Of a DNA stretch of 64,000 bases, positions 1-59,245 are shown one piece after another. Source of the stretch: Tubulanus polymorphus (lineage: Eukaryota > Animalia > Nemertea). The stretch's first letter is position 1. Each line of letters opens with the position of its first letter. Position numbers and translations under genes: made by a program. The DNA is taken from positions 15,438,110 through 15,502,109 of the forward strand of contig NC_134030.1 of assembly GCF_964204645.1 (NCBI RefSeq), read 5' to 3'. The notes under the pieces were generated by a model. That model searched no databases. It was not told the origin of the DNA and saw only the letters and a list, made by a program, of their open reading frames with translations.

Positions 1-1284
1 TTTTATAAGATATTTCAGAATGCCTTTCTCTTTTTTGTGACGAATCACTCGTTCTACGTAATAGATTGGCTCAACCGGATTCGCAGGCTTATTTTGATCG
101 CCCGGATCATCCGGTGCGAGCACAGGCCTCTCCTCAGGTTTATCCCTGTCCTCCCTGTCAATAGGTGGATTCTCAGGTATGTCGTCCTCAAGCGGCCTAA
201 TGTCCGTTGAAAAGAAATGCTTCATTCTATTACAATGTACTGGGACGGCCAACTCTTGATTCCTCTCATTCTCCAATATGAAAGATACAGAAGAAATCTG
301 TCGGACAATTCGATAAGGGCCCGTCCATTGATGAAGCAATTTCTTACTTAGCCTCTTTATTTTCTTTGGAGTGAATAGCAACACTTGATCACCTACTGCG
401 AAATTTGGAGGAACGGCAGTCCTGTCGAAACGTTCCTTCATCTTCTCCTGCGCCTTTTTGATATTAGCCTTGGCCAACTTTCTGGCCTCTTTCAACTTTG
501 GCAACATTGCTTGGACAAAGCCTCCTGCATCAAAGTAAACGTCCCTCGGATTAAGTAAAGCAACGTCCATCGGCAACCTCGGTTCTCGGCCATACGTGAG
601 GTAGAATGGCGAGTATTGCGACGTATCGGAAGCTGGACTTACCCGATATGCAAATAGAATGGGGTAAAGGTATTCGTCCCAATCGGTTTGGCGTTCATTG
701 CAGTAAATGCTCAGAGCCTTGACAATCACAAGATTCATGTGCTCGACTTGTCCCTGAGTTTGTGGTCTATACGCACTGGACCGTGCCCGTGGCGTATTAC
801 ATAGCCGCGAAACCTCGCTGACTAATTTACTCAGGAAATTTGTTCCGCGATCGCTCTGCAAGACAGAGGGCGCCCCATGGCGATAAATGATTTGTTCATA
901 GAAGATCGTAGCGACCGTCGTGGCTTCTTGATTAGGCATAGCAAAAGCTTCAACCCACTTTGTAAGATAGTCGACAAAGACCAATATGTATTTATTTCCC
1001 GAGTCCGTTGTTGGAAAAGGACCACAGACATCCATTGAGACTCTATCCTACGGCCCTGTGACAGCTATGGGGTTAACCGGGGCCCTAATGGGCTTCCCTG
1101 GCTGATTCTTAGTCGCACAGTCCTTACAGGATTTAATCCAATTTTCAACGTCTCGATACATACCACGCCAGTAATACCTTGCTCGCAAGGTTTCGTAGGT
1201 CCGTTTGTGACCCAAGTGACCGCCAGTCATTGAATCATGACCAGCCTCTAACATTTCCGCATACATTCTTTTAGGTATGACCAA
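1..1284 (-). pseudogene. Gypsy integrase (HHCC zinc finger, DDE core, GPY/F motif) ending in a chromodomain
   Basis: ORF 1048..1284 has H-x6-H...CKDC. Manual translation gives KLLHQWTGPYRIV near 310-345 and YYVERVIRHKKEKGILKYLIK at 1-63, which runs off the window. Confidence 0.9.
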
Positions 1285-1302
1285 CTGACGAGGCCCATCA
1301 GC

Positions 1303-3263
1303 CTATATTTTCTTTTTAGAGTCTACATGGTAAAGAACTCCATCATCATCAACAAAGAAGTAGTCTGACTGCAAGATAATTCTTCGGGCTTCCTTGTCAT
1401 CATCTGGCAAGGTACCATCAAGTAAATAGTCTATAAGACACACTAATTGTAAATCAGACCGCTGGAGCTCGCCCATGTTCACGGGCACAGGCCGTCATTG
1501 TCAGCCTCGAGAGCACACGTGTCAATAGTGTCTTCCATACTATCAGAAATGGGATACGGGCGACGAGAGAGCCCATCGGCGTTCCCGTTTGCCTTGCTGG
1601 ACGATGCGATATGGAGTAGTCAAATTGCTCTAAGTAGAGTGCAATACGGCCAACACGACCCGAAAGTGTTTTCATGGTCTGAAGATACCGTAAGCAACTG
1701 TGGTCTGTGATAATCTCAAAATGATATCCCCGTAAGCAGGGTTCAAACTTTTTGACTCCTGCTGCAACAGCTAAGAGTTCACGGTCCGTTGTAGAATAAG
1801 TTTTCTCCGCTTTATTCAATCCTCGCCCCGCATATGCAATTGCTCTTTCTTGCCCATCCTAGACCTGCGCCAGTACCATGCCGTTACCTTCATCGGAGGC
1901 ATCAGTATATAATAAAAATGGCGATGCCCCATAAATGGGGAAGGCCAATACTGGGGCTTCGAGCATCGCTTGCTTAAGGGTGTCGAAAGCCTGTTGACAA
2001 GAAGCGTCCCATCTATACGGCACGCCTTTCTTAGTCAACTGGTGTAAGGGGGCGGCGATAGAGCTGTAACCTCTACAAAAACGCCGATAATAATTGGTGA
2101 ACCCCAGAAAACTTCGTAGTTCTTTTTAAGTCGTGGGGACAGGCCATTCCTGTACGGCTGCTACCTTTTCCGGGTCAGTAGCGATCCCGTCCTTTGATAT
2201 TCGATGTCCAAGGAAGTCAATGGTTTTGACCGCAAACCGACATTTCTTGGGATTTAGGCGAAGGCCTGACTCACGAAATCGATCGAAAATTTGAGCCAGG
2301 TGAATTAAATGACCATCAAAAGAATTCGAGTAACAGATAATATCGTCCAAATATACTAGACAAAATATCCCAACCAAGTCTCTCAGCAGACCGCCAGTCA
2401 ACCTCTGAAAGGTAGATGGCGCCGATTTCAGACCAAATGGGAGTACCTTAAATTCCAAAAGAGACGAACTGTGTTATAAAAGCAGTCTTATCCCTACTGG
2501 CCTCGTCAACTTCAACTTGCCAGTAGCCACTCAGAAAATCAAGTGAGCTAAAGAATGTAGGTGCCGCTTGACCAACCTGAGCCAAGAGATCATCGATTCT
2601 AGGCAGGGGAAAAGAGTCTGAACGGGTGACAGCATTCAATCCCCGATAGTCAACACAGAATCTCCACTTAACCTCTCCGTCCGGGCTCTTTTTCCGAACG
2701 AGAACGATCGGGGCAGCCCATGGGCTAGTACCATGTACTATCCCCATGTCTAACATTTGTTTGACATGCGTGTCAATAACTTCTTGCATGGCCGGAGAGG
2801 CTCTATAAGGCCTTTTCCGAATTGGGGCCGCGTCCCCTGTGTCAATGACGTGTTTGACTAAGTCAGTTTTACCAAGTTCGTCCGGTGTTCGTGCAAAAAT
2901 GTCCCGATACGATCGTATTAGTTCAAGAAGTTTCGCTTTCTGTGATGGGGAAAGGTCCGAGTCTGACATATCTATTTCCGGTATCCCAATGTCAGCAGAT
3001 GTCTGAGGGTAGTCCACATGAGTGACAGACACCTCTGGAGGTCGGGTCATCTGTCCCGAATTCCCTTCATTCTTCAGGGATTGGTCAAGTGACCACCCAT
3101 CTGTCCATAAGTGGCCAAGACACATATCCTCATAGAGGGTGACATGTCGTGACGCGGGATTCATGACCCGAACTGGAATTCCTGATTGCGTAACGTCGTT
3201 TACTGACCTTGCACTCATAAGATCATGTGCCCTTAATTGATTTGCCGGCTCAAAGACTGCCAC
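1303..3263 (-). pseudogene. Gypsy reverse transcriptase and RNase H, frameshifted
   Basis: SPWAAPIVLV, WRFCVDYRGLN, LDFLSGYWQV, LPFGLKSAPSTFQR, YLDD, DFLGH; RNase H motifs YSTTDRELLA and TDH; split over several ORFs. Confidence 0.95.
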
Positions 3264-3287
3264 CGATGCTTGTGTCCTGTCAATCGA

Positions 3288-4901
3288 TTATTTTCCGTCT
3301 ATGATGACCTCACATGAGGGGGGAATGACAGTCATTCGCGTAACCTTGACGGACGAAGACTTGCCCAAATTGACAGTATTGTTGAAGTAAATTGCATCGG
3401 CCCCTGGTAACAAAAGGGCCTTTCTTGCATAATCAATAACTGCCTGGTTTTGTTCTAAGAAATCAGCTCCAAGAATTACATCGGACGTGATACCGTCTAC
3501 CACGTACATAGAGTGCGTAATTTCCAAATTGCCTAACACAAAATCCACAGAAATAACTCCTCTCAGGTCAAATTTAGTTCCATCTACCCCACGGGCAGAT
3601 TGGAATTGACCCACCTGCAAAGGGCCATTTGACATCTGAGGATGAGTCGTAAAATAATCATTCGATAATACAGAGATTTCGGCGCCCGTGTCGATCAAAA
3701 TACTTAACGGTGTCCCCGAATGGCTACCTGTCACTCGGTTAGCGACAGTTGCCATGATTGACGGGGAATAAACCTCTTGTTCAATAGGAATATTCTGACT
3801 AGAAAGAGACCCTATGTCGTTGGTTGGCGTGTTACCTAAAGTCGTCGTAATAGGTGGAAGTTGTTCCTGACAGTGAATAGTAGGTTGAAACTCGGAGTTC
3901 GAATCTCCTATTCCAACATTGTCGTTGGTTGGCATAATCGGTTTAGACGTTGGGACAACCTGACCTCTGTCCTGTACGTTGGACATTTCATTACCGATTG
4001 GTTGATGAAACCCGCTGGTATTCGAGGTGACAGGACGATCCTGTTCTTTTTCGAATAACTGACAACAATTTTCCGATGTTGACACCTGATTTGATACATT
4101 TGATACGACAGTCTCCGTATCATGATGATCATTACGACATTCCGACCGTGAAATGTTATTACTTAAATCAACTGACACTAGGTCACATTGTACCGCTGAT
4201 TCGGAGGTTACCGGGTACTTATACTGATCAGGAGTGCGTTCGTGACAATTCAATTGAGACTTCTTATCTCTAAAAAGGTCATCTTCTGCCGAATCCGTCG
4301 GACCATTAACCCCTCTAGGGTGTAACCTATCAACACTAATATTGTCACCCGAGCACGCCATATCTGCACGTACCTCCTGCAATTCAACCGGATCGCTAAA
4401 TGTGACCCTCCTGTGTCTTTCTACAGGCTCTCTAGTAACCGACAACTGGGAATTATTCCTCCAGCTGTCCTCAAAATTGGATCCCCGATCCATATAAAAA
4501 TTTCCATCAAACGACAACTGGGTATTGTCCCTCCAGCTGTCCCCAAAGTTACGATCTTGAATGTCATAAACGTCATCGGCACCCCATGAAGGAGTGTAAT
4601 CAATAAACTTATTTAAATGTAAAGGTTCATTGTCATCTAAGTAATCTGCATTACAGTTCCCCTCAGGTTCAAAATAAAGAGAAAATGAGTCAGCTAGCAT
4701 GTTGCCCTGATCAAATGACATGTCGAATATATCATCCCTATCGTCCTCAAAATAATCATCAACATCATCAAAAATATAATCGTCAATTACTGGACTGTCA
4801 TCGTCATATCTATGATATGAATATGAGTCGTCCCACCAAAAATCACTCCTTATCGCCGAATCGGGCGAGGGCTCTGTTGACCATTCATTGCGCGACCCCA
4901 C
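3288..4901 (-). pseudogene. Gypsy aspartic protease preceded by a long acidic/low-complexity linker
   Basis: LIDTGAEISVL and DVILGADFL motifs. The stop at 3288 is in frame with the RT ORF at 3263, so it is a single nonsense codon. Confidence 0.9.
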
Positions 4902-5972
4902 CCTTGTCGGTCTATAGGATGAGGTCTCCTCGTTTCCCTGACTAATGTTCGATTAGCCCCTTGGGAGCCACGCCCAATATTCTGTGGCCGAAAGTGACCC
5001 CTACTAGCATTTTGGGGACGGCGATTATCACGCTGAAATGCGTCCCGGTTTGGTGACCTTTGTTGGTCGTAACGCCACGTCGGGCAATTCCTGGCGTAAT
5101 GACCAGGGGCGTGACATTGAAAGCACGCCACCTGGCCATCCTGTGACCTTTGTGACGGGCGGCTTTCGCTATAAAATGTGGCTCTATCATTCCACTGAGT
5201 AGGGCAGACTTCTGGATGTCCATAATTTGGCGGAACATGTCCCGTAATTCAGCCATAACGTCACCCATCGCTTTATTTGGTTCGGTCCCAATTTGCGATA
5301 CCTTGGGAGACGACAGAGCTTTACGTTGTTCGATATGCTCCGCCATTCTGGCTGCCTCCCATGCATCCCTAAATGTCGTCGGACGCTGTGACAACAGGTA
5401 GACAGAGATGTCAGGGCGAGAGTTGTTAATTAGTAACATCTTTTTCTGGTGGTCCGAAAATTTCAAACTCGAGGCCACACGATCAATCTCTTCCGCAAAC
5501 CTATCGACCGGTTGTGTCTCCCCCTGTCGCATCGTCGTCAAAGCCGACTCCTTGACCAAAGCCCACGAGGTGGGGCTAAATTGCGCGCAAAACGCACGGA
5601 CAATATTTTCCCAGGGAGTGACAACTTTGCCACCGGCCGCATCGGTTCCCTGATCAATGCGGAGGTCATTGAATAGAACTAGGGCTGGGCCAGCCAAAAA
5701 CCAATATAATTGCTTCTTTTTTGCAATTTCGTCCCAGCCCCTCTGAACCAATCAGAGACGCACTGACTATCTCGTCCCGTGAATTTGGGGAGCATAGAAA
5801 AATTCATAAAAGCGGTGGCCGTGTCCACCTGCTCGCGTAGGCCTGAGAGGGCCTCCAGGACCGTGTTATCATTAACGGGGGGATGACCCTGTGGAACCCC
5901 TTCGGCAGGGGGTTGCCCCTGCAAGCCGCCCGCACCGTCCTGCCCGTATGCAGTGCCGCTTCTAGTAGCCAT
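4850..5972 (-). pseudogene. Gypsy gag (capsid and CCHC zinc knuckle), frameshifted
   Basis: MATRSG start, LPKFTG, MRQGETQPVDRFA (major homology region-like), CFQCHAPGHYARNC knuckle; three frames. Confidence 0.88.
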
Positions 5973-6190
5973 AATATTGTTGAAACGGAGTAATTCTAAT
6001 TATATTTAAGTATTTCTATACTACTATGTTAAATACTAAACTCGATCCTGATGATCGGCCCAACAAAGCAGCTGTTTCCAAATGCGGTCAATGTCCGCCA
6101 CAGTCAACTCTTCGTTTGACGACGACAAAAGAATGTCGTCAATCCCCTCAAAATTCCACGAAAAGGAAGGGCTGGGGACAGACTGCTTCT

Positions 6191-6844
6191 CTAAAAATGG
6201 CTTAAACACTGACCAGGTGAAAGATCTAATGGCTGGTCAACCGCAGACACACCCAAGGACAGGTCCAGTGGGAAAATTTGTACAGATGTGCCCAAAGATC
6301 CGCCCAACAATTGCCCAGCTGCAGTTGTGTCAACAGACGATGGTCTATCCGCCAACAATGGGGACAGGTCTAATGGCTGCTCTGTGTCCAATGGACGTTC
6401 GGCATCCCCTGTAGGTGAATCAGGTGGCACCGAACAACAGCACGAAAAACTCGAGCAGCCTGAGGTCGAACCAGCCGATGAAGCCCGCGTGATAAGCCGG
6501 TCAGTCCCTATCGGGCTACCACGGTTCGAATCCGTACCCGATGAATTCAGAGTGGGGAAAGAGGGTGCTGAGGGCGGACAAGTGCACCGTATCCGGTCGT
6601 AAAAGACTGCTAGCGTTGGGCACGTGCAGTATAAACAAGTGTCTTTTAACTCAAAGTCCGTTAGCTGGGAATACGGAGTCCCACTATTGTCCCTAGAAGG
6701 TGACCGTGCTGCAGCTATTGATGTCGGAGCTGCGGGTGTCAAGCGCACCGCAACGAGACACCTCTTTCGGGGTGGGGCACCCAAATAACCAGCGCTACGG
6801 CGTTTGGTTGTAACCCTTACCGTTATCGGCCCCGACATAAACAA
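6191..6844 (-). CDS. Accessory ORF upstream of gag; Cys cluster, basic NLS-like segment and three PLDLS motifs
   Basis: 217-aa open frame with an AT-rich leader; PPRKRC, CLYCTC...CTC, QPLDLS, FPLDLS, QPLDLS and a PLDTE variant near the C-terminus. Confidence 0.65.
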   Translation of the reverse strand: MFMSGPITVRVTTKRRSAGYLGAPPRKRCLVAVRLTPAAPTSIAAARSPSRDNSGTPYSQLTDFELKDTCLYCTCPTLAVFYDRIRCTCPPSAPSFPTLNSSGTDSNRGSPIGTDRLITRASSAGSTSGCSSFSCCCSVPPDSPTGDAERPLDTEQPLDLSPLLADRPSSVDTTAAGQLLGGSLGTSVQIFPLDLSLGVSAVDQPLDLSPGQCLSHF

Positions 6845-6912
6845 TTGATAATAATATTAATAGAAAGAAAATGTATGATCATCAGTGTTAAGCAATCTAG
6901 AATCCCTCAAAG

Positions 6913-7230
6913 TCACTCAAAGTAGCCGTATACCCGCGACCTGTCGGCTACCAATATGTTGTGATCAGGGATATCGCACAAACTAAAATCCCCCTGATCC
7001 CAGAAAGACGTATCGCTATCGGTTAATCCACCGGGTGGAGGGTTCGAATCCCTCACTGGCTGTCCCACAGCCCCGACGGTGGTGGTACCTTTGGTGCTGG
7101 TTGGGTTCGATTCCCACAGCGGCTCCCTTAGATGGGCCGGTATTTCCCACCTAGACTTGGGAGCTGGCGAAAGTGTATGTGTTTTATAAACCGTAGCCCC
7201 GCAGTGACCACACTTCAACCCAACCGACAT
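6913..7230 (-). CDS. Accessory ORF (CxxC plus EPLWESNP), paralog of 7430..7972
   Basis: Likely start MSVGLKCGHCGA after an AT-rich leader; WEIPAHLREPLWESNP matches FEIPEEHREPLWDSNP in the neighbouring ORF. Confidence 0.6.
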   Translation of the reverse strand: MSVGLKCGHCGATVYKTHTLSPAPKSRWEIPAHLREPLWESNPTSTKGTTTVGAVGQPVRDSNPPPGGLTDSDTSFWDQGDFSLCDIPDHNILVADRSRVYGYFE

Positions 7231-7429
7231 ATAAAACAATAGTGAAATATTAAAATAGCAAACCAATTATAAATTAAATTTGGTTGTATAATAATTAAAT
7301 CATTAATCGATAATTAAATACTTAAATGATAATATTAAACCAATTTAAAAATAGTAATAAATAATTAATTAACAATTAAATACTTGAATGATAATATTAA
7401 GAAAATTGACGCCCTCTAGCCAACTCTAT

Positions 7430-7972
7430 TTAAGCTGGGCAAAGAAAATAACCATTCGCGTCTTTATCCCCAAAAATGAAGTCGTTCGGGTTCGCGAAAT
7501 CCCGAAAAAAGTGTACCCAGAACGGGTCGAACTTGTCTGGCACCTTAACCAGCCGTACTCTGCGCCGGCGTTCCGAGGGGTTCAAATCCCCAAAGGTGAC
7601 CAGAGCTGGCGCCTCGTGCTGTGTAGCACGTTGGTTTGGTTCCCACAAGGGCTCAGCGGAGGCGACCGAGGTGAGCGGTGGGTTCGTATCCCACAATAGC
7701 TCCTGATTATCTTCAATCAAACCCAATGCCTTTGGTATCGGTGGGTTAGAATCCCACAAAGGCTCCCGGTGCTCTTCCGGTATTTCGAAAGGCTTAATCG
7801 GTGGGTTCGAATCCCACAATGGTTCCCGATACTCCTCCGGGATCTGAAATGGTCGTGCACGGGGTGGGTTCGAATCCCACAATGCCTGTGTCGGCCTGTT
7901 TACTGGAGTGCGGCGCTTCTTTGAGAAAGCGTTCTTCGCACCACAGTGTGAACAAATAAAAATTCGAACCAT
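7430..7972 (-). CDS. Accessory ORF (CxxC plus tandem EPLWDSNPP repeats)
   Basis: 180-aa ORF MVRIFICSHCGA..., about five 20-21-aa repeats, first substantial ORF after the PBS. Confidence 0.65.
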   Translation of the reverse strand: MVRIFICSHCGAKNAFSKKRRTPVNRPTQALWDSNPPRARPFQIPEEYREPLWDSNPPIKPFEIPEEHREPLWDSNPPIPKALGLIEDNQELLWDTNPPLTSVASAEPLWEPNQRATQHEAPALVTFGDLNPSERRRRVRLVKVPDKFDPFWVHFFRDFANPNDFIFGDKDANGYFLCPA

Positions 7973-8024
7973 TAAAATTAATAAATTTCAAATAATAAAA
8001 GCTTGACACAATAATTAATCAATA

Positions 8025-8038
8025 CGGTTTCGGCACCA
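8025..8038 (-). other. Primer-binding site, tRNA-Phe type
   Basis: Minus strand TGGTGCCGAAACCG one base after the LTR-terminal CA; matches the complement of the tRNA-Phe 3' end (TGGTGCCGAAACCC). Confidence 0.85.
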
Positions 8039-8039: not shown

Positions 8040-8583
8040 TGATACACCGGTCACAATCCTCTCTTTAATCGTTATCTATAAAATACTTGAGTAAGGCCCT
8101 GGCGAGAGAACGTGTCCGTGCACAAATCCGAATGAATAAATTGAAATAACGGATGATAATATTGAAGATAATATATTTTATTTACCTTGAACAAAGAATG
8201 ATTTTCCTAATCCCTATTGCATATGAATCCCTATCGTTCCGAAGCTTCTCCTGTCCTGCTGTCGACACTCGTCTTACTAAGGTACAGATTCTCCCGATTG
8301 ACTGCTCTCTCAAGATGCGGGTCCCTTTTATAGAAAGAATCGGCATTCTTAAAATACCGACTCTCCCACTCGACTTTTTGGCAAGGAGCAACAACCTTAC
8401 TGTCATGACTGTTTTGGTCATATAGAATTTGGCCTTAATGATTCGCTGATCTAAAATTATTTTCAAAACTGATTTGCTAAACTAACTTTTTCCTTCCAAC
8501 CCTCCTGTCATGACGCGTTGTGATTTACTCACTCCTTGCTAGTCGTTGTTGAGAGAGCAGCTATAGCTCCGTTCCATCTTACA
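8040..8583 (-). repeat. 5' LTR of the Gypsy element (outer boundary tentative)
   Basis: Ends ...GTGTATCA next to the PBS; candidate start TGTAAGATG at 8583; TATAAAAG (~8325-8332) and AATAAA (~8167-8172) in the expected order. The partner LTR is outside the window. Confidence 0.7.
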
Positions 8584-12064: not shown

Positions 12065-12487
12065 ACTACGGTTGTTTCAGAGCTTCAAAGTCTTGTTTTG
12101 ACATCAGATTCAAGTACTTATAAGACCGAAGTTCAAAAAGCGACCAACACTTGCCGCAATTATTATTATTCAATCAGAAGTAATATAATATAGAAGCGGC
12201 CAACCTTGTAGGTCATATCTATTTGTAGTCTAGATTTATAACTTGATGATGGCGTACAATATTTTGCGATTCCAGCTAGGCAACATGATGAAGCAGCAAA
12301 AGTGTTAGGCGAAACACTGTCAGTCCGCCTTGCGAATGAACTATCCCTCAAAAAGTCACCACAGTGAAGATCAGATAAGAGTCTACCATAGTCTGCTGGA
12401 TGACTTGTGGATTTTTTTGAAATAAGTTTTGGGTTACCCCGTTGACAGTTATATACCTGTTGACGATTTCGAGGAATGTCACCGGGA

Positions 12488-12856
12488 CTATTGCTTAACA
12501 GATTTACAGATCATGACTAATTGCTTACGACATTTTGGTGATTTTTCTTCCGCAAGTTTTCCTATCTTATTAAATACACTTGGCTTCGTTCTGTTATACG
12601 GCTCTTTTCGTTTTTTCGCATTGCCATGTGGCTTTTCATAAGGGGCCATTTGCAAATACTGTACAATGGCATATCTGTGAAGACCATTTCTTGAGTATAC
12701 CCTAGATATAATCCGTTTGGTCAATTGGTTTTCAGCATATTGCCTCTTGAGTTTTATTTTAAAAATTCCGTCTATATCAGCTTCACCTGCCATCTCATCT
12801 AGATCATCAATGTCAACTTTACCCCGACTTAACATTTTAACTTGGCTGATTTTCAT
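12488..12856 (-). pseudogene. Fragment of a probable transposon-derived protein (PHGNxK...PYxRTxPS motif)
   Basis: Motif recalled from uncharacterised MULE-associated invertebrate proteins; the ORF is truncated. Confidence 0.4.
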
Positions 12857-13044
12857 ATTTCATGGTCAAATTCTACCTCAACCAAACTAGATGGAGATGA
12901 CACTTTGTCATAAGTACCGCTACTATCTGATGTAAGATCACTATCGCACACTGACTCTAGATCAATTACAAAAACGGAATAACAATTATTTTAAATTACA
13001 TAGTCAATGAAATTACACTCAAATCAAGCGTGATAACCAGTAGA

Positions 13045-13585
13045 CGAACCACTGTCAACAGTATGGTCACTACAGTCTTCCAACGAATCCAGAGAGCTTG
13101 TTACTTCTTTGATGTTATTTGATTCAGCAAAATCAGTTGGTCGAGATTTCCGATTCTCGGTTTGCAGTAACGCACCTTCGTCAACAGTATGGTCACTACA
13201 GTCTTCCAACGAATCCAGAGAGCTTGTTACTTCTTTGATGTTATTTGATTCAGCAAAATCAGTTGGTCGAGATTTCCGATTCTCGGTTTGTACTAACGCA
13301 CCTTTGTCAACAGTATAGTCACCGCAGTCCTCCAACGAATCCAGAGAGCTTGTTACGTCTTCGATGTTATTTGATTCTCGGTTACCACAAGTAACGTGCC
13401 TTTGTCATCAGTATCGTCACCGAAGTCTGCCAACGAATCTAGAGAGCTTGTTAATACTTCTACGTTGTTTAATACAGCGGACTCATTTGGTCGAGACTCC
13501 CGATTCTTTTTTCGGGGAAGTAATGAACCTTTATCAAAGGTATGGTCACCACAGACAACCAATGAATCCAAGGAATCTATGTTGC
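13045..13585 (-). repeat. ~120-bp coding-like tandem repeat (SLDSLEDCxDxTVDxG...RxSRPxDxAExNN), about 4.5 units
   Basis: Two near-identical units at ~13055-13175 and ~13180-13295 plus diverged units up to ~13585. Confidence 0.9.
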
Positions 13586-13652: not shown

Positions 13653-15801
13653 CGGTTCCTGAACTTCGCTGAAAAAGCTGAAACACTGAAAAGCCGAACC
13701 GCTGAAATAAAAACGCTGAAATTTCAGGGAATTTCTGAAAAACGCTGAAATTTCAGGGAATTCCCGAAAAACGCTGAAATCGTGCGAGGTACCGACAATA
13801 CACGTTTTGAAATGTTTTCCGGGCCGGTGTCCGCTGAGGAGTCCTGAACCGTGTTTTATGCTCTAGCTTCGGTTACAGAGACATGCCTTAAGGTCGTCGT
13901 CATGATCGACTTGATCGATTGCGGATTGCGTGGATTGTTAGATGTGTTTTTTGCCATAGTTTTATGTGCATATACCGGTACGATCTAACAATGAAGTTAG
14001 CACTTCATTTGAATAAATTCTTAATTACAGTAATATTAATTCACAATATTTTTTCTTATGTTTGGTGATTTCTTGCAACTTATCATTGCCAAGTCTCATA
14101 CAAGAAGTAGCTGAATGAAAGTACAGTTAGGCTGAACCTGATAACCCAAATTAAGTGCTAGCATGGAACTAAAGATTATTTTGATTCTATTTTCGGTGTC
14201 ATTGAAATTCGTTAATAAAGGTTCAACCGTCATAGTATACTGTACTTAGCATTGCTACGATTGGGTGCCATATTTCTACAATTTCTACAAGGAGGAAGGA
14301 GTCTTTAAGTGTCTTTGTTCCCTGGTAGGGTACGGGGTAAAACCTGGTTTACTTTCTCTTTCGACTTGCCGGAGACTACTATCTGCAATGTATTGCATGC
14401 TTTGATTTGTCTGGCCTATAGGAGTCGAACGATATTTTCCCATACACAGGCTTGGCTTTAGTGTAGATGAAGGCTAGGCACTGCACATTGTGGATTGACT
14501 GGAACTCTTAACTCACAAAATTAAACGAGTCAACAAGAAAGATCCAATAATTGGACGTTTGTCTAACTATATTATTTAACAGCTTGAAATAATACATAAC
14601 ACATTCTGCAAGAGTACACAAAGGAAATCAGTTCTTACATTATATCAGAATCAATAGTTCGCTTAACTCTGGCTAGAATTCTGGTTCCATTGCTTCATAT
14701 TCTAATGAAATCCACTAGCATACTTTAGAATATCGCTTAGCTTAAGACTAAAAATTTGGTACCAGGAAACAGGGAAGAAAAAGTGGGTGTACTGTACATT
14801 CGCAATTGACTTATTTCTCTCTGGTTGAATAAAGTTATTATTGAAATAGCATTCGAATAGCCATTTTAAAATTTTTTAAAATTGTGTCGTTCAGCTATCC
14901 TGCTGCAAATACCGCAGTTGAAGTTTACTGGTGCCAGTTGATTTCTCAGTATCTCAAAAAATTTGCACATTCTAAAGCCTAGCGCACATCGACACTGCGA
15001 TTGGGGACAACTAGTTGCAAGGCAGTTTTCGGCGCATGAGAGGAACTGGCTGGATACGATCAGTTGCTTGAATGTGTCGATGTGAGCGAGCTTACGATTG
15101 GTAAGCGTCGATCTATCTCCAGTTCCAGCCAGTTGCCCATGTTCTACTTTTGAGCAACTGGCAAATCGCAGTCATATCCGTCGATGTGCTCGCTCTGGAT
15201 CTCGACGATCGACATGCGCCATGCAGTTGCTGCAACTGACCGGTTGTAACTAGATTTCGATGTGCGCGGGGTAATCATTTATAAAACTAGCTGTCAAATT
15301 TAATTTACCTCCTTCAGAGAATACCATGACATAGTCCGTCGCCCATCAACGTGTTGACAAAAGAAAAGTTGCTTCATGTTTTATACATGAACGTTCAAAT
15401 AAGATATTTTGCGTCTTGCAGGGAATATTGAGCATAGTGTTTAAGTTGGCTTGCACGGTTTGTTGATGGGTTTTCCTCATTATGCTGCCTGTATGCATTA
15501 AAAATCCGGATTTCAAGCGAATTAATTTGTCCAACAAGTGGCCCTCTAGAAGTATACTCCACACATACTGTCCATGCATGTCTCTGTAACCGAAGGTAGA
15601 GACTAAAACACGGTTCAGGACTCGGCAGCAGACACCGGCCCGGAAAATATTTCAAAACGTGTATTGTTGGTACATAGCACGATTTCAGCGTTTTTCGGGA
15701 ATTCCCTGAAATTTCGGCGTTTTGCAGAAATTCCCTGAAATTTCAGCGTTTTTATTTCAGCGTTTCAGTGATTCAGCCTTTTCAGCGAAGTTCAGGAACC
15801 G
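13653..15801. mobile_element. Non-autonomous Mutator/MULE-like TIR element
   Basis: ~230-bp TIRs (CGGTTCCTGAACTTCGCTGAAAA ... TTTTCAGCGAAGTTCAGGAACCG) and a perfect 9-bp TSD CTGTGTAAA at 13644-13652 and 15802-15810; no transposase ORF. Confidence 0.9.
14981..15267. mobile_element. Small MITE-like insert nested in the MULE element
   Basis: Inverted GCGCACATCGA / TCGATGTGCGC ends and internal CAGTTGC/GCAACTG repeats. Confidence 0.5.
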
Positions 15802-20415: not shown

Positions 20416-21189
20416 CTATCTACACTGTAAATTACTTTTTTAAATCATGATCAGGCATACAATAACCGACCGGGTGTTTGAACTTTTCCGAATCACAAAA
20501 TCACAATCGGTTGGAAATACGCTGATTAATAAAATTTACTGACGGGACATTCTACCGCTATAATGAAGCTATTTCTCAGTGCGTTTAGCCCGTTCGCGGT
20601 TTTGAATGCGTTATCCTCTTAATTGTTAGGACTAATATTTTACATCCATATGTATAAATAGTAGTGTAGCCATGGAACGACCCTATGATGGCACGAAAAA
20701 AAACAATGTAGTGTTATCTAACCGTCAATCATTACGTCGTATAGTTTTAAAAGTTGGACCGTTCCGTCTATCTCAATTGCAAATTTTATATATTTTTTTT
20801 GCATACATTTGGCTACTAATTGTTTAAGTGACTTGATCGAATTCGGCGATATTCGAACACCGTAACAGACCGGGCAGCTATATAAATGAACTGATTACAA
20901 ATTTTATTGCGATTTACAAAATGACGGAGAAACATCATGCTTTAGCGTAAGTTATAAAATGTTATGGCCCTCTCTTAAAGAGAATTCAAATTTAAAGAGA
21001 GAAGGTGTCCGCAGAATATCTAAAATATTTATTCCCTGTATTTCCAGTCATTATACGACTTTCTTTGTTTGTGCGTTTATTTCTTTTAAAAATAATACTC
21101 ATTATCCCGGGAGTCGGACAATATTACAAATGGCGTCCCTATCGATAAGAACTTATGCATGCACGTCATCAACCATTTTTTTGTAAGAT

Positions 21190-23280
21190 AAATGGCATCT
21201 GCAATTATAACTAGTATAGGATTGGCAATTGTTAACGCTTTAGCATTTAAAGGTCGTGGTTATTTATTTAAACATATTGATAAAAATGGTTCATTAACCG
21301 AGCAAAAAGACATAATTAATTAGAAAAATATAATAAAGCAGCAGAAGAATGTAGAGAAAAAAGACAAAATTATTGAGATTATATTAGTAAAGAATTATAG
21401 AATCAGAAAATTTCACATAGAGACTTCATCAGTTGATGAAGCGATGAGTTTATAAAATCAATATTTAAATCAGTAACAAATCGTGAAAAATTACATTTGT
21501 ACGAACCTAAATTATCAGATTATTATACACTGAGTAAAGAAAAACAACAATATGAAATAATTTGGATTTTAGGTGGAACAATTATTGTTATATTTGTTGC
21601 TTATAAATTTACTAATAAGTAATTTTTTTCACAATATAAATGGAAGATAAAATTGATGGGGTTAATATTATTCCTCATGATATAGATAAATCTAAATTAA
21701 AATCATATTTAGAAAAACAAATATTAGAATTTGAAATACATTTGAAAGTTAAAAAGAGAAAATATTTAAAAAGTAAAATTATATATTATTTCATTATTAG
21801 TGATTCTGTTACAGTTAGTTCTGTATTAACATTTTTAGCAATACTCAGTCCATTAACACATTAGGTACATCAATTGGCGTTTTAGGTTTAGGTTCTAGTG
21901 TTTTAATCGGAATAAGTTCAAAAATTAAGCATAAAAAGTAATAAAGAAAAAATAAAATCTGATATAAAAGAAATTAATGAATAAGAAAATGCATTAGATT
22001 ATATAATTAGTTTAAATTGAAATATAACAATTGAAGAACACGATAAATTATTTAAAGAATTAATTAATTATTGACTTTTTTATTATATAAATGGTAGATA
22101 ATGTTTATTATGCAACAACAGGATGTGGAAGAAGTTGGAATAATCATTTAAGTAAATTAGATGAAAATTTAAATTATTCCGATTTGAAATGATTTCATAC
22201 ATATTTTCAAATCAGAATTATTTTAAATGACTTAGAATGTCCCTTACAGGGATCAAAATATTTTAATGAAATAAATAACGATATTAACCTAAGTTTGATA
22301 AAATATGTAATGAATATAATATAAATATAAATAATTTTGATTTAAAGCTCATGGTAAATTGCATGGTGTTGGTGAACAGAATGAAATAATGAGTATCAAT
22401 TATATGCACGTCATAATTATAAAATTGATAATGATAATGGTTGGATTAATTGTATTTTAGAAAATAGTGAAGGTTTTACAAAATCGGGCATACAGCGAAT
22501 AAAGCAATCTATTAGAATATATCTTATTTGCATATTAACTAATTTGTATACTAATTTGTATATTAGGATCACAATTTTAAAGATCACCAATAGTTGGAAA
22601 TAATAATACCTCATTTGATACAAAAACACAATTTGAAATTCTATTTGAAGATGCAATTCATAATGATAAAAATATATCAATTCCAGAAAATATAGTAAGA
22701 TATCAAAATTGTTTAGATAAATCTCATGTAAGATTAAATTATTGTATAGGGCTTAATCCATTAATTATATCTAATGATTTAGTTTTGAAAATAGAAAATA
22801 TGATTGGGTATAATAATTTGATTAAGACTGCCGGAATGAATAATAAATTTGGATTAAATTATATTAATAAAAATACTGCTCCGAAATTAATGGAAGAAAA
22901 TAAAAACGTATTCAATCAACTGAAATTAAAACTCAAAATAACAAATTAAATGATAATAATTTTAAACCAGATTGTAATACTACAGAAAATAATAAAACTG
23001 ATAATATTTAGCAAAAGTTAACTTAAGAAATTAGAAAAAGTATGATATTCCAAGAGTATGAATTCAAACAGAAAATCAAAATAGATTCAGATCGAAGCTA
23101 ATAATGCAATAATAACTAATGCCGCGGATAATTTAATCAAAACGATCTATGGAAGTAAATATAAAATTCCATTAGACTTTGATTTAATAAGTAATAATGC
23201 ACCTTTATAAAAATATGTAATTCAAGAAGATATTATATTTAAAATAACTTTTGCAACTGTGAATAAAGTTTTATTAGCAT
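21190..23280 (+). mobile_element. Degraded relic of the AT-rich Polinton-like family, ending in a major capsid-like fragment
   Basis: Colinear, diverged homology to 26517-28700 (same MASAII, MEDK and CATTGCG genes). 23100-23260 translates to IYGSKYKIPLDFDLI...IIFKITF, which resembles Polinton MCP. Confidence 0.8.
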
Positions 23281-24332
23281 TGGTTGACGTATATGACGTC
23301 ATGCCAATGCTAGTAAAATGGATCAGAAATAGTAGTACGAAAAAATAGCGCCGACTCTTCTCATTTTCATAGTAACTTCAAACTGTCACTCCGTTCACGT
23401 AAAACATTAGAAACAGCTGAAAATGATTAAAAATGTTTCAATTATTCCCCACAACATAGCGTCGCCAGATTTCTGATTTAATGGTCCAAAAAATTATTCG
23501 ATCGCATTTTTCTCGTTCATTATCTGGTAGATGAGAGCGGGTTAAACAATCGCGTTGCGATATGTCCGCATTGACATTGGAAGTAAAGAATGGGGAACAG
23601 CCTGTTCTGAATAGAAAAAGATAAAATTACGCACTCGGCAGAGATTCGCTTTGTAATGCGCGCCGGGAAAAATACCTTTTATTATCTTTTCCATGCGTTA
23701 AACCACAGCGATTGAATTTACGCGTTGTTTGTCGTAAATTGCAATATTGCGATGGTTATTTGCCACTGCTGTAGTTTTTTGGAATTGAATCGAGCGGCCT
23801 CGGTAGCTCAATGAGATAAGGCGTGATGCTGTTGAATCCACTATCAATGCTGAGTGACAAGTGGGTCCGAGTCCTGCTGGCTGCGAACAGTTTGCGGGCA
23901 ACACTTCAAAGGCCGTACCGTATTGAGGTTAAATGAACAATCCAATAGGAATAGTCTTGGGAAACCAAGATCCAAACGACGTACGTAAAGCCAAACAAAC
24001 AAAAAGACAAACAAACAATCATCAGCCGGCCTCAGTGACACCAACGCCAGCATCGCTCTCTGCGACGTTTTGCATGCGTACATGCGGGTCTTGCAATTTC
24101 ATTCAGAAAAATCGTTCTGTTTTTGTTTTCATTATTCAGTGGGGCCTAACAGTTCATGCGTAAAATTCCTGCCAGTCGGCCATCTTGATTCTGACAGGGC
24201 CAGTTTTTGGGCTGAAGATGTTGTCTAGGGTAGATACATGTATAAACCAAATATCAAGACATTACCTTGAAGCGTCTTCAAAACTTCCCAAAATAACTGG
24301 ATTCCGTCTACGGACGGACGGACGGACGGACG

Positions 24333-24454
24333 AGTAATAGGGGTTTAGTTGTTCTATACCAAAGGTCGAAGGGTCGAAAAATAAATTCTCGCACACTCGA
24401 AATTATTTTTCGACCATTCAACCTTTGTTATAGAACAACTAAACCCCTATTACT
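24333..24454. repeat. 122-bp imperfect palindrome at the probable left end
   Basis: AGTAATAGGGGTTTAGTTGTTCTATA... pairs with ...TATAGAACAACTAAACCCCTATTACT over ~52 bp with few mismatches. Confidence 0.9.
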
Positions 24455-24550
24455 TCTATATAATCACGAGTTTCATAAATTTACAAGCATCAACACGCTG
24501 AGTATTGCGTAATACATGTTGATTCTAGATGGATGGTTCTAGAAAACTAC

Positions 24551-24720
24551 ATTAGCCAATCACAGTTGAGTATTACTCTAGCCAATCACAGTTGAGTATT
24601 CCCTATTACTCTATCCAATCACAGTTGAGTATTCCCTATTACTCTAGCCATCATTAGCCATCATAATTTACAAGCCTCAACACGCAGCTGGGTTTTCCCC
24701 ACTATTGAGTAGTATAAAAA
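24551..24720 (+). promoter_or_regulatory. Tandem CCAAT-containing repeats followed by a TATA box
   Basis: CCAATCACAGTTGAGTATT three times, TATAAAAA at ~24713, disrupted ORF starting at 24811. Confidence 0.55.
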
Positions 24721-25176
24721 CGACGCACACGTGGTAGGCTTATACGTGGCGGCGGGACGCGTTGAGAGTTAAGTGTTATATTCAATTTGAATAAAAAATT
24801 TGATATTAAAATGGAGAGTAAACAAGTACACAGTGAGAACAACAAATCATTCTTAGATCATAAAAGATACTTCAAATGCTAAATCAGTAGATTATAAATT
24901 CAAAAAGTTAACAGAATTAACAATTCATAAGAAATATCTAATTACAAATATTGATACAGTTACTAATAGATATGGAGATAAATTAGTTATCCACTTAGAA
25001 TATGAAGGATTAAAAGGAAATAAATATAAATTCAGAACATATTTACCAGATAGATTGCATAGATTATCAAGTGAAGATTTAGAAGAATTATGTTCTGGTG
25101 ATTTCTATTTCATATATAAGGGTAAGAATGAAAAAGGGCACCATGAAATAGATTTCGAATAAAATATGTAAAATAA

Positions 25177-25934
25177 ATGGTAGAATTAAAAGAATACAGA
25201 ATATTTGTTGATTCAAGAAGACTGACAAATCATAAATCTCATAATTTACTAGTACAATTAGGTAGAGAATTTAAGAATTGTGTAGATTTAAAATTAGTAA
25301 ATACTAGTTTATGTAACTCATTTTACAATATATCGGATAAAAGTATTGAACATAGAGTCTTTTTAATTCATGACAGAAATAAGAATAGATGGTTTCATCA
25401 TTATCTAAAACCAGGATTATATAATTTAGAAACATTAGCTCAAGAAATTAATAAAAGAGCACGCTCAAAAATGGGTGCATCTGCTGGATTTTGATTAAGA
25501 CTTATTAAAAGTGATAGCTCTGATAAAGTAAGAATACAATTAGGAAATGAAGACCAACATCAATTTCTAGTTAAAAAACCTTTAGCTAAAATTTTAGGAA
25601 TAACCCAGATGTAAGGATACGTAATGCTGATGCTACACCAAACTTAATACCCTTTACACATTTTTATATTCATTGCAATTTAATTGAACCTACAAAGACA
25701 TTTGAAGCAACTAAAGATACAATTTGTAGTTCTGGTTTATTGAATATTTTACCATTGAAGAATGTTAAAGAATTTGGAACGCAAATAAATTATAATTTAG
25801 CTGAGTGTGATTTCAAACCATGCATTCCTCAATTTAATAATTTTAGATTAGAAATTAGAAATCACAATGGATATTTAATTGATTTGAATAACTTTCCTGT
25901 AATTCATGAATTAGTTATAAGATGTAAAGAGTAA
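25177..25934 (+). pseudogene. Minor capsid (penton-like) protein, disrupted
   Basis: IFVDSR, SFYNI, PGLYN, FYIHCNLI, IDLNNFPVIHELVI motifs typical of Polinton minor capsid proteins. Confidence 0.7.
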
Positions 25935-26519
25935 TTTTTCACTATATAAATATGAATATAACTGTTGGACCGAGTATATGTTTTGGGTTTGATTTTAAAC
26001 ATGGTAAAGAAATGAGAATTAAACTTAATGATGTAATTACTGATATTAAACGTCAATCATTTAATAATGCATCAATGATTAATAAAGGAAATTATAATAT
26101 AGAAAAAGTAATTGATTTAATCAAAACACCTTTAGAATATTATGAATTAAATGAAGATGGAATTATCGATGATATTAAAAACATATTATCTAAAATATAT
26201 GATAATCATAAAAGTAGTAATAAAAAAATGTTGAAATAATTATCACTAAGATAACTAAATATTTTGAAGAAGGTGATTTTATGATGAGTGGATAATAACT
26301 GGTTTATATAATGGAGCATTACTATCAGTTGGAACTGTTGGTTATTCAATGGTATTTAAAAAAGTATTTAAAATGGGAAGTGTTAATGTTGATAGATTTG
26401 ATATAAATGATATTTTAAAATTAACATTAGCAGTAACCCTATCTAATTTAACTATTGATTATTTGGAAAAACTAAGATATATTCCTCCCATATAAATGCG
26501 TAATTTTTTTGCTAAATAA

Positions 26520-27395
26520 ATGGCATCTGCAATTATAACTATTATAGGGTCAGCAATTGTTAACGCTTTAGCATTTACTGGTGGTGGATATTTATTTAAA
26601 CATATTGATTCCTAAATAGTTCATTAGGAGAACAAAGAAGACATAACTTAGCATTAGAGAAATACAATAAAGAAGCAGAAGAAAATAAAGAAAAGAGGCA
26701 AAACTATATGGATTACATCAATAAAGAATTATATAATCAGAAAATTATACATAGAGATTTTCAATCAGTCAATGATGCAATGAGTTTATATAACGCAGTA
26801 ACAAATAAAGAAAAATTACATCTATACAAACCTAAATTATCAGATTATTATACCCCAAGTAGTGAACAACAAAAATATGAAATAATTTGGATTTTAGGTG
26901 GATTAGTTATTGTTATATTTGTTGTATATAAATTTACTAATTAGTAATTTCTTTTCTAAATAAATGGATGATAAAGTTGATAATATTTATATTATTCCTC
27001 ATGATATAAATAAAACTAAATTGAAATTATATTTGGAAAAACAAATGTTAGAATTTGAAAATGAATATAAGATAAAAAAGAAAAAATATTTAAAATCTAA
27101 AATTATATATTATTTTATTATTAGTGGTTCAGTTACAATAAGTTCTGTTATAACATTTCTAGCAATATTCTCACCATTAACACCTTTAGCAATATTAATT
27201 GGTGTGTTAGGATTAAGTTCAAGTGTTAACCGGAATGAGTTCAAAATTAAATATAAAAAGTAATAACGAAAAAATAAAATCTAATATAAAAGAAATTAAT
27301 AAATTGGAAAATACATTAGATTATATAATGAGTTTAAATGGTAATATAACAGTTGAAGAACAGGATAAATTATTAAAAGAATAAATGCATTATTA
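26520..27395 (+). pseudogene. Two small membrane proteins of the element
   Basis: MASAIITIIGSAIVNALAFTGGGYLF... and MDDKVD... with hydrophobic segments; homologs in the 21190-22070 relic. Confidence 0.6.
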
Positions 27396-27412
27396 ATTTT
27401 TTTATTATATAA

Positions 27413-28793
27413 ATGGCAGAAAGCTTTCCAAAAGCTTTTCAATATGATAAATCAATTAAATATAATATTCCAGCAATAGATTTTAATAAAGATATTTCAT
27501 ATAGAAATGAAGTTTTGAATTCATTAATTAATTTAGATATTTATGTTACTGAAACTTATAATTTCAATGCAAAAATGGAAAATATATTTCATGTATATTT
27601 AATTAATTTAAAAAAATTGAAAGATGAAAAACAATGGTTTTTAAAATCTAATATGAAATATTGGCAGAACCAATTTTGCAGTTTATTGTGCTACAACAGG
27701 ATGTGGAATAAGTTGGAATGACCATTTGAATAATTCTAAATATAAATTAATTCAAAGTTTATTTAGATTCCATACATACTTTCAGATAAGATTAATATTA
27801 AATGAAATAGAGACCCCTTTACCAGGATCTAGATATTTTAAAGAATTAGATAATGATATTAATTTGTCAAAGTTTTATAAAATTTGTAATGAATTTAATA
27901 TAGATATAAATAATTCTGATTTTAGAACAAACTTGGAACAATAAAGATCACTTCCTTGCCCTAAAAAGATTGCAGAATATTGTACACTTCCCATACCATC
28001 CAATACTTTTTATAATATCTATAATAATAAATTAGGTTATGGTAAAAAAGAAACTAAGGATTTAGAAACATTAAATTTCAATAAATTACCGACATTTTAT
28101 GATCATTTAAAACAAGAAAACAATAATGGTTGGGTTTATTTTATTTTAGATAATAGTGAAGGATTTACGAAAGCTGGTATACAAAGAATAAATCAATCAA
28201 TTAGAACTTATTTAATGTGTATTCTAGGTGCACAAGTTGAAACAAGATCCCCAATAATTGGAAATTTAAATACATCATTTGATACACAAAAACAATTCAA
28301 AGTTTTATTTGAAGATTCCATTCATAATGATAAAAATAGATCGATTCCAGAAAATATGGTTAGGTAACAAAATTATTTAGATAAATCTCATGTAAGATTA
28401 AATTATTGTATAGGGCCCAATTTATTAATTATTCTGATGATTTAATATTAAAGATGGGAAATATAATTGGTTATAATAATTTGATTAAAACTGCAACAAT
28501 AAATAATAAGTTTGGATTGAATGATATAAATAAAAAGATTATCACTGCTCCAAAATTAATGGAAGGTGACAAAATTAAAAAACATATTCAATCAACTGAA
28601 ACTAAAACTAAGAATATCAAATTAAATAATAATTCTAAAATAAAAGATTACAATACGTCAGAAAATATAAAAACTGATATTATTCAACATGAAATAATTA
28701 AAACTAATAATGATAACAAATCACATTAAAATACGAAATTAGCTATAACTTGTATAGGAATTGTAATAGGAGGAATATTATATTTTAAATTTT
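27413..28793 (+). pseudogene. Conserved hypothetical Polinton-like protein, frameshifted
   Basis: WQ...CATTGCG, FRFHTYFQIRLIL, GFTKAGIQRINQSIR segments, also present in the relic copy. Confidence 0.6.
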
Positions 28794-28810
28794 AATTTTC
28801 TATTATATAA

Positions 28811-31023: not shown

Positions 31024-31029
31024 TTATTA

Positions 31030-31520
31030 TAAAACTAATTTATATATCTATGTACAAGACGTACGTAAGAATCCAAGAAAGTAAGAATTCTTACGTTCTT
31101 ACTCATACGTCTAGTACATATATATATGAATTATTTTTTTATAAAAATATAAATTATGAATTGAAGTATAGAAATAGTTATAACACAATCTATTTTTATT
31201 TTTATTGAGTGAAAACATATAATTTATTCATTTTTATATATTTCATTTAATAATTTATATTTGTAATTATTTTAAATATATATTATATATATAGTTGTAC
31301 CCCTGTGTAAACATAAATTATAAACATAGTTTTAATATATAATTTATTCATTATTATATATTTCATTTAATAATTTTTATAAAAACTAATTTATATATCT
31401 AGATACTAGACGTATGAGTAAGAATCCAAGAATTCTTACTTTCTTACTTTCTTAGCAAGAATCTTGGATTCTCACTCATACGTCTAGTACTTAGATATAT
31501 AAATAGTTATTTTATAGATT
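31030..31520. terminator. Two large related hairpins between convergent gene blocks
   Basis: Inverted repeats at ~31030-31148 and ~31375-31520 (TACTAGACGTATGAG...CTCATACGTCTAGTA), separated by an AT-rich direct repeat. The terminator role is inferred. Confidence 0.55.
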
Positions 31521-32066
31521 TATATTCATAAGGAAATTGAAGCCTCAGTAATAATTTTGAGCCTTTATTATTCTTTAATTTATTCATATATTCATCATGT
31601 AATTCAGTAGGTATAATTTGATTCTCTCCCAATGATTGTTGCATAGATTTTCTATCTTTATTATTGAATAAATTTTATATTCTCCCTAAAATCTTTAACA
31701 ATTGAATTATATTTTTGATTTAAAACCCATGTTGTTATTCCAAAATGTCTTCCAGAGAAAGCTGAATAGCATAGTTCACTTTCTCTAACTTTTGAATCAA
31801 GTAAATTAGCACAATCATCTATAATGAATAAAGTATTTGTTCCTTTATAAATATCAATTGCTATTTTTATACAATTATCTAAATTTTCTTTCACTGTTAT
31901 AGGATCTAATATAATAAACTTTTTTATCTTAAAATAAAACATATAATAGAGATATAGTTAAGTGGGGCAGAATAATATTATATTATCAAAATGATTCTTA
32001 TAAATAGTTTCTAACAAATCTAATACAAAATGTGTTTTAACACAATTTGTTACTCCAGTAATAAAT
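31521..32066 (-). pseudogene. A32/FtsK-like DNA packaging ATPase, disrupted
   Basis: Degenerate Walker A ITGVTNCVKT, Walker B LFIIDD, GRHFGITTWVLNQKY. Confidence 0.85.
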
Positions 32067-32068
32067 CT

Positions 32069-33156: not shown

Positions 33157-33162
33157 CTTATT

Positions 33163-33519
33163 TCAATCCATTAATAATAATCTTGGTTTAATTTCAATGA
33201 CTTTATCATTTGATTTATTTTCTGGTATAATAGGTTTATCATCTTTATCATCAGATTTATACTTATATTTATATATGACACCAGAGAATATAATAACTGT
33301 TACTAATCCAATTGTAATATAAAATTTATTATTACTTCCAGCATAAGAAGCATCAGATGGATTATCATTCGAATCAATATCAGATAATTTCTGTGATTCA
33401 TTTATAACATTTGATTTTTTTTTCTTAGCTTTTTTTAATTCTGAAGATCTTTTACCCAATTCCCTAGCCCATTTAATTTGTTTTTCAGATCTAGGCTTCT
33501 TCTTAACATCATCACTCAT
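33163..33519 (-). CDS. Hypothetical protein with one transmembrane helix
   Basis: 118-aa ORF, basic N-terminus (RSEKQIKW), single hydrophobic segment, TAAATG start. Confidence 0.65.
   Translation of the reverse strand: MSDDVKKKPRSEKQIKWARELGKRSSELKKAKKKKSNVINESQKLSDIDSNDNPSDASYAGSNNKFYITIGLVTVIIFSGVIYKYKYKSDDKDDKPIIPENKSNDKVIEIKPRLLLMD

Positions 33520-59212: not shown

Positions 59213-59245
<33 letters not shown>

Follow-up and report, generated by a model that had tools for sequence, protein, structure and literature searches.

The element and its leader

We analysed a 64,000-nucleotide stretch of the Tubulanus polymorphus genome (Nemertea; contig NC_134030.1, positions 15,438,110 to 15,502,109), here called the window, and describe a Ty3/Gypsy retrotransposon that occupies the minus strand of 8583-1. 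Its parts follow in the order long terminal repeat (LTR), primer-binding site (PBS), a leader of 2,053 nt, gag and pol. The leader contains a cassette of three small sense-strand open reading frames (ORFs), at least two of which are quite probably functional genes. The features are listed below (aa, amino acids; uORF, upstream ORF; RT, reverse transcriptase).

8040..8583, minus strand: 5' LTR, 544 nt, with putative TG...CA ends (sequence and read depth)
8026..8038, minus strand: PBS, one base past the CA of the LTR (sequence)
7973..8025, minus strand: A/T-rich spacer 1, 85% A+T
7430..7972, minus strand: ORF1, 180 aa
7231..7429, minus strand: A/T-rich spacer 2, 82% A+T, with an internal 62-nt duplication and one 2-codon uORF
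6913..7230, minus strand: ORF2, 105 aa, with a CxHC knuckle and two repeats
6839..6912, minus strand: A/T-rich spacer 3, 74% A+T, with a 19-codon out-of-frame uORF that overlaps the ORF3 start
6191..6838, minus strand: ORF3, 215 aa in this copy
6376-6362, 6271-6257 and 6232-6218, minus strand: three PLDLS motifs in ORF3
6036..6236, minus strand: acidic stop-free frame, probably the C-terminal part of ORF3 in most copies
5973..6035, minus strand: A/T-rich spacer 4, 81% A+T, preceding gag
6520..7880, plus strand (antisense to the element): eight tRNA T-arm/B-box-like hairpins inside the ORFs
4850..5972, minus strand: gag, broken in this copy, start context strong
1..4952, minus strand: pol, with a long spacer, protease, RT, RNase H and integrase, broken here

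The initial annotation had placed three sense ORFs between PBS and gag, with a T/A-rich spacer before each ORF start and before gag. This layout holds: the PBS is at 8038-8026, the ATG of gag is at 5972, and between them the ORFs lie at 7972-7430, 7230-6913 and 6838-6191 (the first two exactly as given, the third starting at 6838, not 6844), and the spacers have 74-85% A+T. ORF1 has an N-terminal CxHC knuckle, a KKRR basic stretch and six degenerate [EQ]PLW[DE]SNP repeats, and ORF3 has a basic N-terminus, a Cys cluster (CxxC) and a Ser/Pro-rich middle. No membrane segment is seen in the three ORFs by hydropathy (maximum over 19 residues: 0.23, 0.17 and 1.28), and AlphaFold single-sequence models are of low confidence (mean pLDDT 37 and 46). 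The three frames likely encode small regulatory proteins that are probably disordered.

In block-wise dinucleotide shuffles, with blocks drawn from the ORF edges, three ORFs of at least 100 aa were found in 10 of 2000 cases and ORFs as long as those observed in none of the 2000; counted block by block, the first frame remained free of stops in 4, 32 and 2 of the 2000 shuffles. The initial annotation also pointed to the frames being open while gag and pol are broken. This contrast turned out to be uninformative, because the gag-pol break rate (about 10 breaks in about 5.9 kb, counted by eye, making this a dead copy) predicts about 2.8 breaks for a cassette with 1.65 kb of coding sequence, where we see 1: ORF3 is broken near 6198, where 57 of 72 reads differ from the window by one base in length.

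The element is assigned to Ty3/Gypsy by its gag domains (Pfam Retrotrans_gag, E 1.2e-5; zf-CCHC, E 2e-4) and by the order protease, RT, RNase H and integrase. RNase H and the chromodomain-like start, within which pol leaves the window (about 13 chromodomain-like residues before the edge), were read from the sequence and are not Pfam matches. The LTR contains TATAAA at 8332, AATAAA at 8182 and a donor-like AGGTAA at 8187; its ends are placed without confirmation from a partner because the 3' LTR lies outside the window. We take the PBS to be of the tRNA-Phe type. A stretch of about 400 aa before the protease (4952-3760, minus strand) is acidic, of low complexity, unusually long and open in this copy.

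Family membership and coding signals

Read depth was taken from the whole-genome shotgun run X5, about 12% of which was read. Depth is 4-9x in the flank (12151-13500), 94-120x in pol (1-3150), 62-93x in the cassette (5851-7650), 242-342x in gag and the protease spacer, and about 960x in the LTR (bin 8101-8550). With a depth near that of pol, and with no flanking direct repeat of at least 7 nt found, the cassette belongs to the Gypsy family, as initially proposed, and is family-wide, not a private insertion. If the flank is single-copy, the depths suggest about 10-20 cassette-bearing copies, plus related families that share the LTR, repeats and gag. Over 3601-5850 (gag and the acidic spacer), the depth is 2-3x that of pol, a hint at related or non-autonomous families that keep the LTR, repeats and gag. 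A coverage hole over spacer 2 in runs X2 and X3 was considered as an intron and rejected (the run type is unknown, and holes prove nothing).

These results bear on whether the cassette could be a captured foreign fragment without current function, e.g. from a small DNA virus with E1A-like genes. Such an origin would agree with the Polinton-like elements in the window, with several copies being broken and with the weak lead to E1A that ESM gave for ORF3 (0.79, under the usable range). It is at odds with the depth and the missing flanking repeat, with the presence of the cassette in diverged families, and with a purge of ATGs and start contexts tuned to a place before gag (see below); no viral homologue was found. 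We regard it as highly improbable.

Several comparisons point to selection on the proteins. ORF1 and ORF2 are paralogues (BLASTP E 1e-9) that share the CxHC start and [FW][QE]IP-x3-REPLW[DE]SNP units. Repeats b and c of ORF1 have 9 synonymous and 2 replacement differences (pS 0.79, pN 0.05), distributed 2/0/9 over the codon positions (Fisher p 5e-7), and the skew is weaker in other frames; the pair was picked for peptide likeness, which inflates the p value and does not create the third-position pattern. In ORF3, PLDLS is found at residues 155, 190 and 203 (and PLDTE at 149). The three copies are written with different codons (2, 3 and 5 synonymous differences in pairwise comparison, 10 in total, and no replacement difference), and none of 100000 residue shuffles reached three.

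Length variation among the copies is often in frame: 3-nt indels were observed at 6462 (48 + 8 = 56 of 82 reads, two alleles) and at 7020. In a family with about 79% identity the region 7889-7894 shows a net change of 3 nt, and a duplication of 63 nt (24 reads) and a deletion of 123 nt (8 reads) were seen as well. Repeat units in diverged families are spaced by 60 and 63 nt (arithmetic on joint lengths). Judged by these codon patterns, the cassette frames carry signals of protein-level selection. For the accessory proteins of the initial annotation, family membership and coding signals are thereby in place, and the host modulation ascribed to them stays a prediction. That annotation had overlooked the PLDLS motifs, the paralogy of ORF1 and ORF2 and the antisense T-arm array.

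Start codons, hairpins and a proposed mechanism

The leader contains 7 ATGs against a mean of 27 expected (0/2000 shuffles as low), and ATG is its most depleted triplet (z -5); the ATG density in gag and pol is 19-25 per kb. The seven include the three ORF starts and four that open uORFs of 2-19 codons. Not one of the 497 residues of ORF1-3 is an internal Met, as compared to 22 of 810 in the gag/pol pieces. There are 2 out-of-frame ATGs; synonymous redraws came down to this count in 27 of 5000 cases under cassette codon usage and in none of 5000 under pol usage. The context is weak at all three ORF starts (T at -3) and strong at that of gag (A at -3, G at +4). The ATG purge and the start contexts therefore favour leaky scanning over the splicing, reinitiation or internal initiation suggested at first, with splicing and internal entry kept as possible routes. 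Because a plain scanned untranslated region (UTR) is also expected to be ATG-poor, the purge by itself backs scanning to gag and not coding. A precedent exists in rice tungro bacilliform virus (RTBV), in which leaky scanning past weak upstream starts over 900 AUG-free nt leads to the polyprotein (PMC5902531). By this layout, ORF1-3 are likely made by leaky scanning of unspliced genomic RNA.

The same ORFs could be accessory genes whose products come from subgenomic RNAs, made by splicing or by separate initiation, or from internal entry at the A/T-rich spacers; their role would lie in RNA handling such as export or packaging through the hairpin array described below, similar to CERV of Cer1 or retroviral Rev. 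The donor-like AGGTAA at 8187, the T-rich spacers and a TATAAA at 7188 agree with this, as do the zinc-knuckle-like N-termini and basic stretches of ORF1 and ORF2 beside conserved hairpins just past the PBS, and CERV provides a precedent (PMC10309623). However, splicing gives no reason for a purge of ATGs inside the ORFs, no AG is found directly before a start, and the three PLDLS motifs point toward chromatin, not RNA. We consider this route possible, on the doubtful side.

On the opposite strand of the repeat codons, hairpin stems were found at about 6520, 7038, 7101, 7576, 7678, 7741, 7801 and 7864, six of which meet a strict T-arm pattern (GG-TTCRANY-CC closed by 4-5 pairs). The whole window has 7 strict matches, six of them in the cassette and all on the plus strand, and synonymous redraws of the same proteins gave at most 4 in 5000 draws vs the 6 observed. 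Among the eight units, one stem pair takes three types (UA 4, AU 2, GC 1) and another takes two. In total, 91% of stem cells are paired (0/500 shuffles as high, slid controls lower); the units are few and related, and the shuffle figure is not a probability. The nucleotide structure appears to be kept at the protein's cost, because the encoded W turns to R, G or T wherever the stem pair changes. In one hairpin a change that is synonymous for ORF1 disrupts the loop (two spanning contigs, from two runs, match the window exactly), and one repeat retains EPLWExN without a hairpin. Both nucleotide and protein constraint seem to act on the repeat codons.

Canonical RNA polymerase III (Pol III) genes, tRNAs and mascRNA-like units were tried for this array and rejected (ARAGORN, 0 genes; Rfam, far below gathering scores; no A-boxes). 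The best A-box matches 28-95 nt upstream of the B-boxes have 1-2 mismatches and equal the background. The hairpins may be TFIIIC-binding B-boxes, RNA hairpins or stretches of complementarity to host tRNA T-arms (in PBS polarity), with no firm ranking among these.

It is conceivable that the leader is mainly a cis-acting, tRNA-derived T-arm/B-box array in an ATG-poor 5' UTR, that repeats in phase gave rise to ORF1 and ORF2 as by-products, and that at most ORF3 is a gene. The concentration of strict hairpins in the cassette (6/7, with at most 4 in redraws) and stem pairs that covary while W changes would be expected of such an array. Two observations detailed below also agree with it, namely units spaced by 62 nt in a related family of high depth and a neutral outcome of the test on single-nucleotide variants (SNVs). 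The array does not explain why, outside the hairpin, nearly all differences between repeats b and c of ORF1 fall on third positions, why a loop is broken by an ORF1-silent change, why one repeat keeps its peptide without the hairpin, why an ATG opens each GC-rich block, or why both paralogues begin with a CxHC knuckle. We find it clearly unlikely as the main role of the leader.

In E1A, PLDLS serves as the canonical CtBP motif, and having several copies raises CtBP binding (PMC2749851); in Drosophila, CtBP represses canonical transposon transcription (PMC7061269). The explanation that we lean towards, by a modest degree of belief, combines three accessory ORFs, leaky scanning, and an ORF3 product predicted to bind CtBP and to ease silencing. 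Ribosomes would load at the cap within the LTR; some would start at each weak ATG, and the others would reach gag. The ORF3 protein would bind the host co-repressor CtBP via its PLDLS motifs and, as a guess, might titrate or redirect CtBP away from the LTR, like adenovirus E1A. CtBP-directed anti-silencing is a likely role of ORF3 as predicted from its motifs; for the direction of the effect we can only guess, since a decoy would relieve silencing and a recruiter could serve self-limitation. The hairpins would provide a second, overlaid cis signal, and may perhaps act as TFIIIC-type B-box or RNA-hairpin sites on the chromatin or RNA of the element itself; ORF1 and ORF2 could conceivably be knuckle-plus-repeat adaptors.

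A bolder version, which we hold tentatively and with more doubt than belief, is that the element has built, apparently independently, a DNA-virus-style early region. It would consist of a leaky-scanned leader, an E1A-like triple-PLDLS CtBP decoy, a duplicated knuckle-repeat protein, and repeat codons doubling as antisense T-arm/B-box mimics, and would join a trans anti-silencer with a cis chromatin barrier.

Several observations weigh against the CtBP and leaky-scanning explanation. Synonymous changes are not in excess among the SNVs that separate copies, at 5 of 13 (share 0.05-0.75) and 4 of 11 (share at least 0.75, window-private), against a neutral fraction of about 0.25-0.31; integrase variants of intermediate share, a small control, are 4/7 synonymous. 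The count is based on 29 coding rows classed among 40 shown of 184 rows, with 5 of the 29 left out (2 not present in X5, 3 belonging to diverged families), and 7 rows at 7785-7799 (poorly aligned) unclassed. ORF3 of this copy is frame-broken near 6198, a 1-nt loss at 6830 is found in contigs of sample S2 (0/83 X5 reads), a contig of X2 has a 50-nt deletion and a 23-nt insertion (3 and 6 X5 reads), and the 62-nt unit spacing occurs in a high-depth related family (X3 contig, 13-19 X5 reads), which may be non-autonomous. Splicing could use the donor-like site at 8187 and the AGs that lie 23-90 nt ahead of each start, and scanning of about 2 kb past hairpins and three starts exceeds the RTBV case. 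A motif scan of ORF3 found neither LxCxE nor the E1A CR1 motif, so ORF3 is at best like the CtBP-binding part of E1A and not a member of the E1A family. Finally, protein word, HMMER, ESM atlas, PDB and tblastn searches gave no homologue of ORF1 or ORF3.

Homologues and known systems

For ORF3, the word search gave 0 of 1018 candidates at E <=1 (lengths 118-377 only), Pfam gave no match, and the best PDB hit has E 0.2. Its ESM-atlas neighbours, a Znf238 fragment (0.85) and E1A (with the score noted above), are leads only. For ORF1, HMMER against 1.84 billion representatives returned one tandem-repeat protein, which was rejected as spurious; the ESM atlas gave none, and the best PDB E is 0.7. 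ORF2 was searched in Pfam and against fetched loci only. When the three ORFs and the tail frame were compared by tblastn with 94 fetched loci, a single match came up (E 0.2); this says little on the range of the cassette because the fetched elements are distant (integrase identity <=54%). No relatives of gag were found, and none of the RT in viral contigs.

No database match exceeds about 50% identity to the integrase; two corals and a brittle star are among the few matches with names, and many of the top matches carry chromodomain PF00385. A quick tree of 74 rows gave the element a long branch (2.0) and placed it outside every starred group. Leaders of the distant relatives are <1 kb to the contig start, and their extras lie mainly 3' of pol. 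In three of them a basic CxxC ORF lies between PBS and gag (L001:199-669, L005:284 onward, L063:243-944); it stands alone in L001 and L063, is joined to gag-pol in L005, and shows no similarity to the cassette. Two others have 3' multi-ORF cassettes (L003:6682-9776, L008:7401-10724) with env-like, GDSL lipase, RING finger and other ORFs.

The closest published layout is that of the Drosophila MDG1-group elements (412, mdg1, Stalker, Blood, Tabor), which have translated sORF1 and sORF2 upstream of gag (PMC11952523). Since such ORFs are known, calling the system undescribed, as the initial annotation did, overstated its novelty in layout. Like the cassette ORFs, the MDG1 ones are small sense ORFs between LTR and gag; they are carried on unspliced LTR-to-LTR RNA and translated, and sORF1 is nuclear (PMC11952523). 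MDG1 elements have two ORFs of about 110 and about 70 aa, one of which is a membrane protein, whereas the cassette has three hydrophilic ORFs (two paralogous), none resembling the transmembrane sORF2, with CtBP motifs, T-arm hairpins and a leader free of AATAAA (PMC11952523 for MDG1).

RTBV and badnaviruses also have long ORFs free of internal AUGs, with weak starts, before the main polyprotein, and tolerate short uORFs; they are plant pararetroviruses with two ORFs over about 900 nt and a shunt, whereas here we have an animal element with three ORFs over about 2 kb, read from sequence (PMC5902531). ORF3 resembles E1A (PMC2749851) and the adintovirus 'Oncoid' proteins (PMC8502044) in being small and motif-bearing, with PLDLS (E1A) and CxxC in common. 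In contrast to E1A, it is retrotransposon-encoded, has no sequence homology to E1A, and has three PLDLS motifs, as the cellular repressor ZEB has three PLDLS-like motifs (PMC2749851). CERV of the C. elegans element Cer1 is an accessory regulatory protein of an animal Gypsy-type element, made from spliced mRNA and acting in RNA export, and was set against ORF1-3 by description only (PMC10309623).

Helenus TRIMs (miniature retrotransposons with terminal repeats), found in marine invertebrates among others, likewise hold a tRNA-derived B-box inside an LTR retroelement; they are non-autonomous with A and B boxes in the LTR (a Pol III promoter), whereas here there are eight internal, antisense, in-frame units without A-boxes (PMC10886601). 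Extra genes of rotifer and other metazoan Gypsy elements (env, GDSL, DEDDy) lie 3' of pol and are enzymes or fusogens (PMC5408684, PMC13524379), and plant LTR elements have extras both upstream and downstream (PMC7264820). The distant relatives L003, L007 and L008 carry 3' extras like the metazoan Gypsy ones; this window ends in pol.

Neither CtBP motifs in an ORF of a retrotransposon nor a T-arm array lying internally and in antisense turned up in the literature that we searched; an annotated version could exist in subscription journals, Repbase reports or supplements. Elements with ORFs ahead of gag have been described before, and the variant with three hydrophilic ORFs, triple PLDLS, a leaky-scanning layout and dual-coded T-arms appears to be new.

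Whether animal transposons counter silencing with proteins of their own is a long-standing open question. ORF3 offers a specific, testable candidate, a short-motif mimic that would be aimed at CtBP, a co-repressor reported to restrain fly transposon promoters. If true, leaky scanning of the pararetrovirus type would reach to an animal retrotransposon as well, and to a length of about 2 kb. With a peptide repeat and a tRNA-like signal in nucleic acid kept on the same bases, the T-arm array would be a rare case. It also serves as a warning that 'WDSNP'-type ORFs, readily dismissed as antisense-tRNA artefacts, can hold real coding signal.

Other mobile elements were noted in the window. Just outside the Gypsy LTR, a long interspersed nuclear element (LINE) with ORF1 and an AP-endonuclease ORF2 (11704-8635, minus strand; depth about 20-30x) is cut at the start of its RT; nesting of this LINE inside the LTR was considered and dropped, as the LTR probably starts at 8583. 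A 2.1-kb element with 206-nt inverted arms (13681-15781) is nested in a decayed transposase-like region. An A/T-rich block at about 21000-36100, Polinton-like by eye, contains an internal duplication of 5.3-5.7 kb along with frames that resemble an integrase, an HNH endonuclease and a polymerase. A second Gypsy pol (36048-38120, plus strand) apparently has its integrase C-terminus before RT (Gmr1-like order, by eye). A 9.7-kb element (53059-63096) with 185-nt perfect inverted ends and 25-nt subterminal repeats looks Polinton/adintovirus-like by eye, and carries type-B-DNA-polymerase-like frames at 55222-58992.

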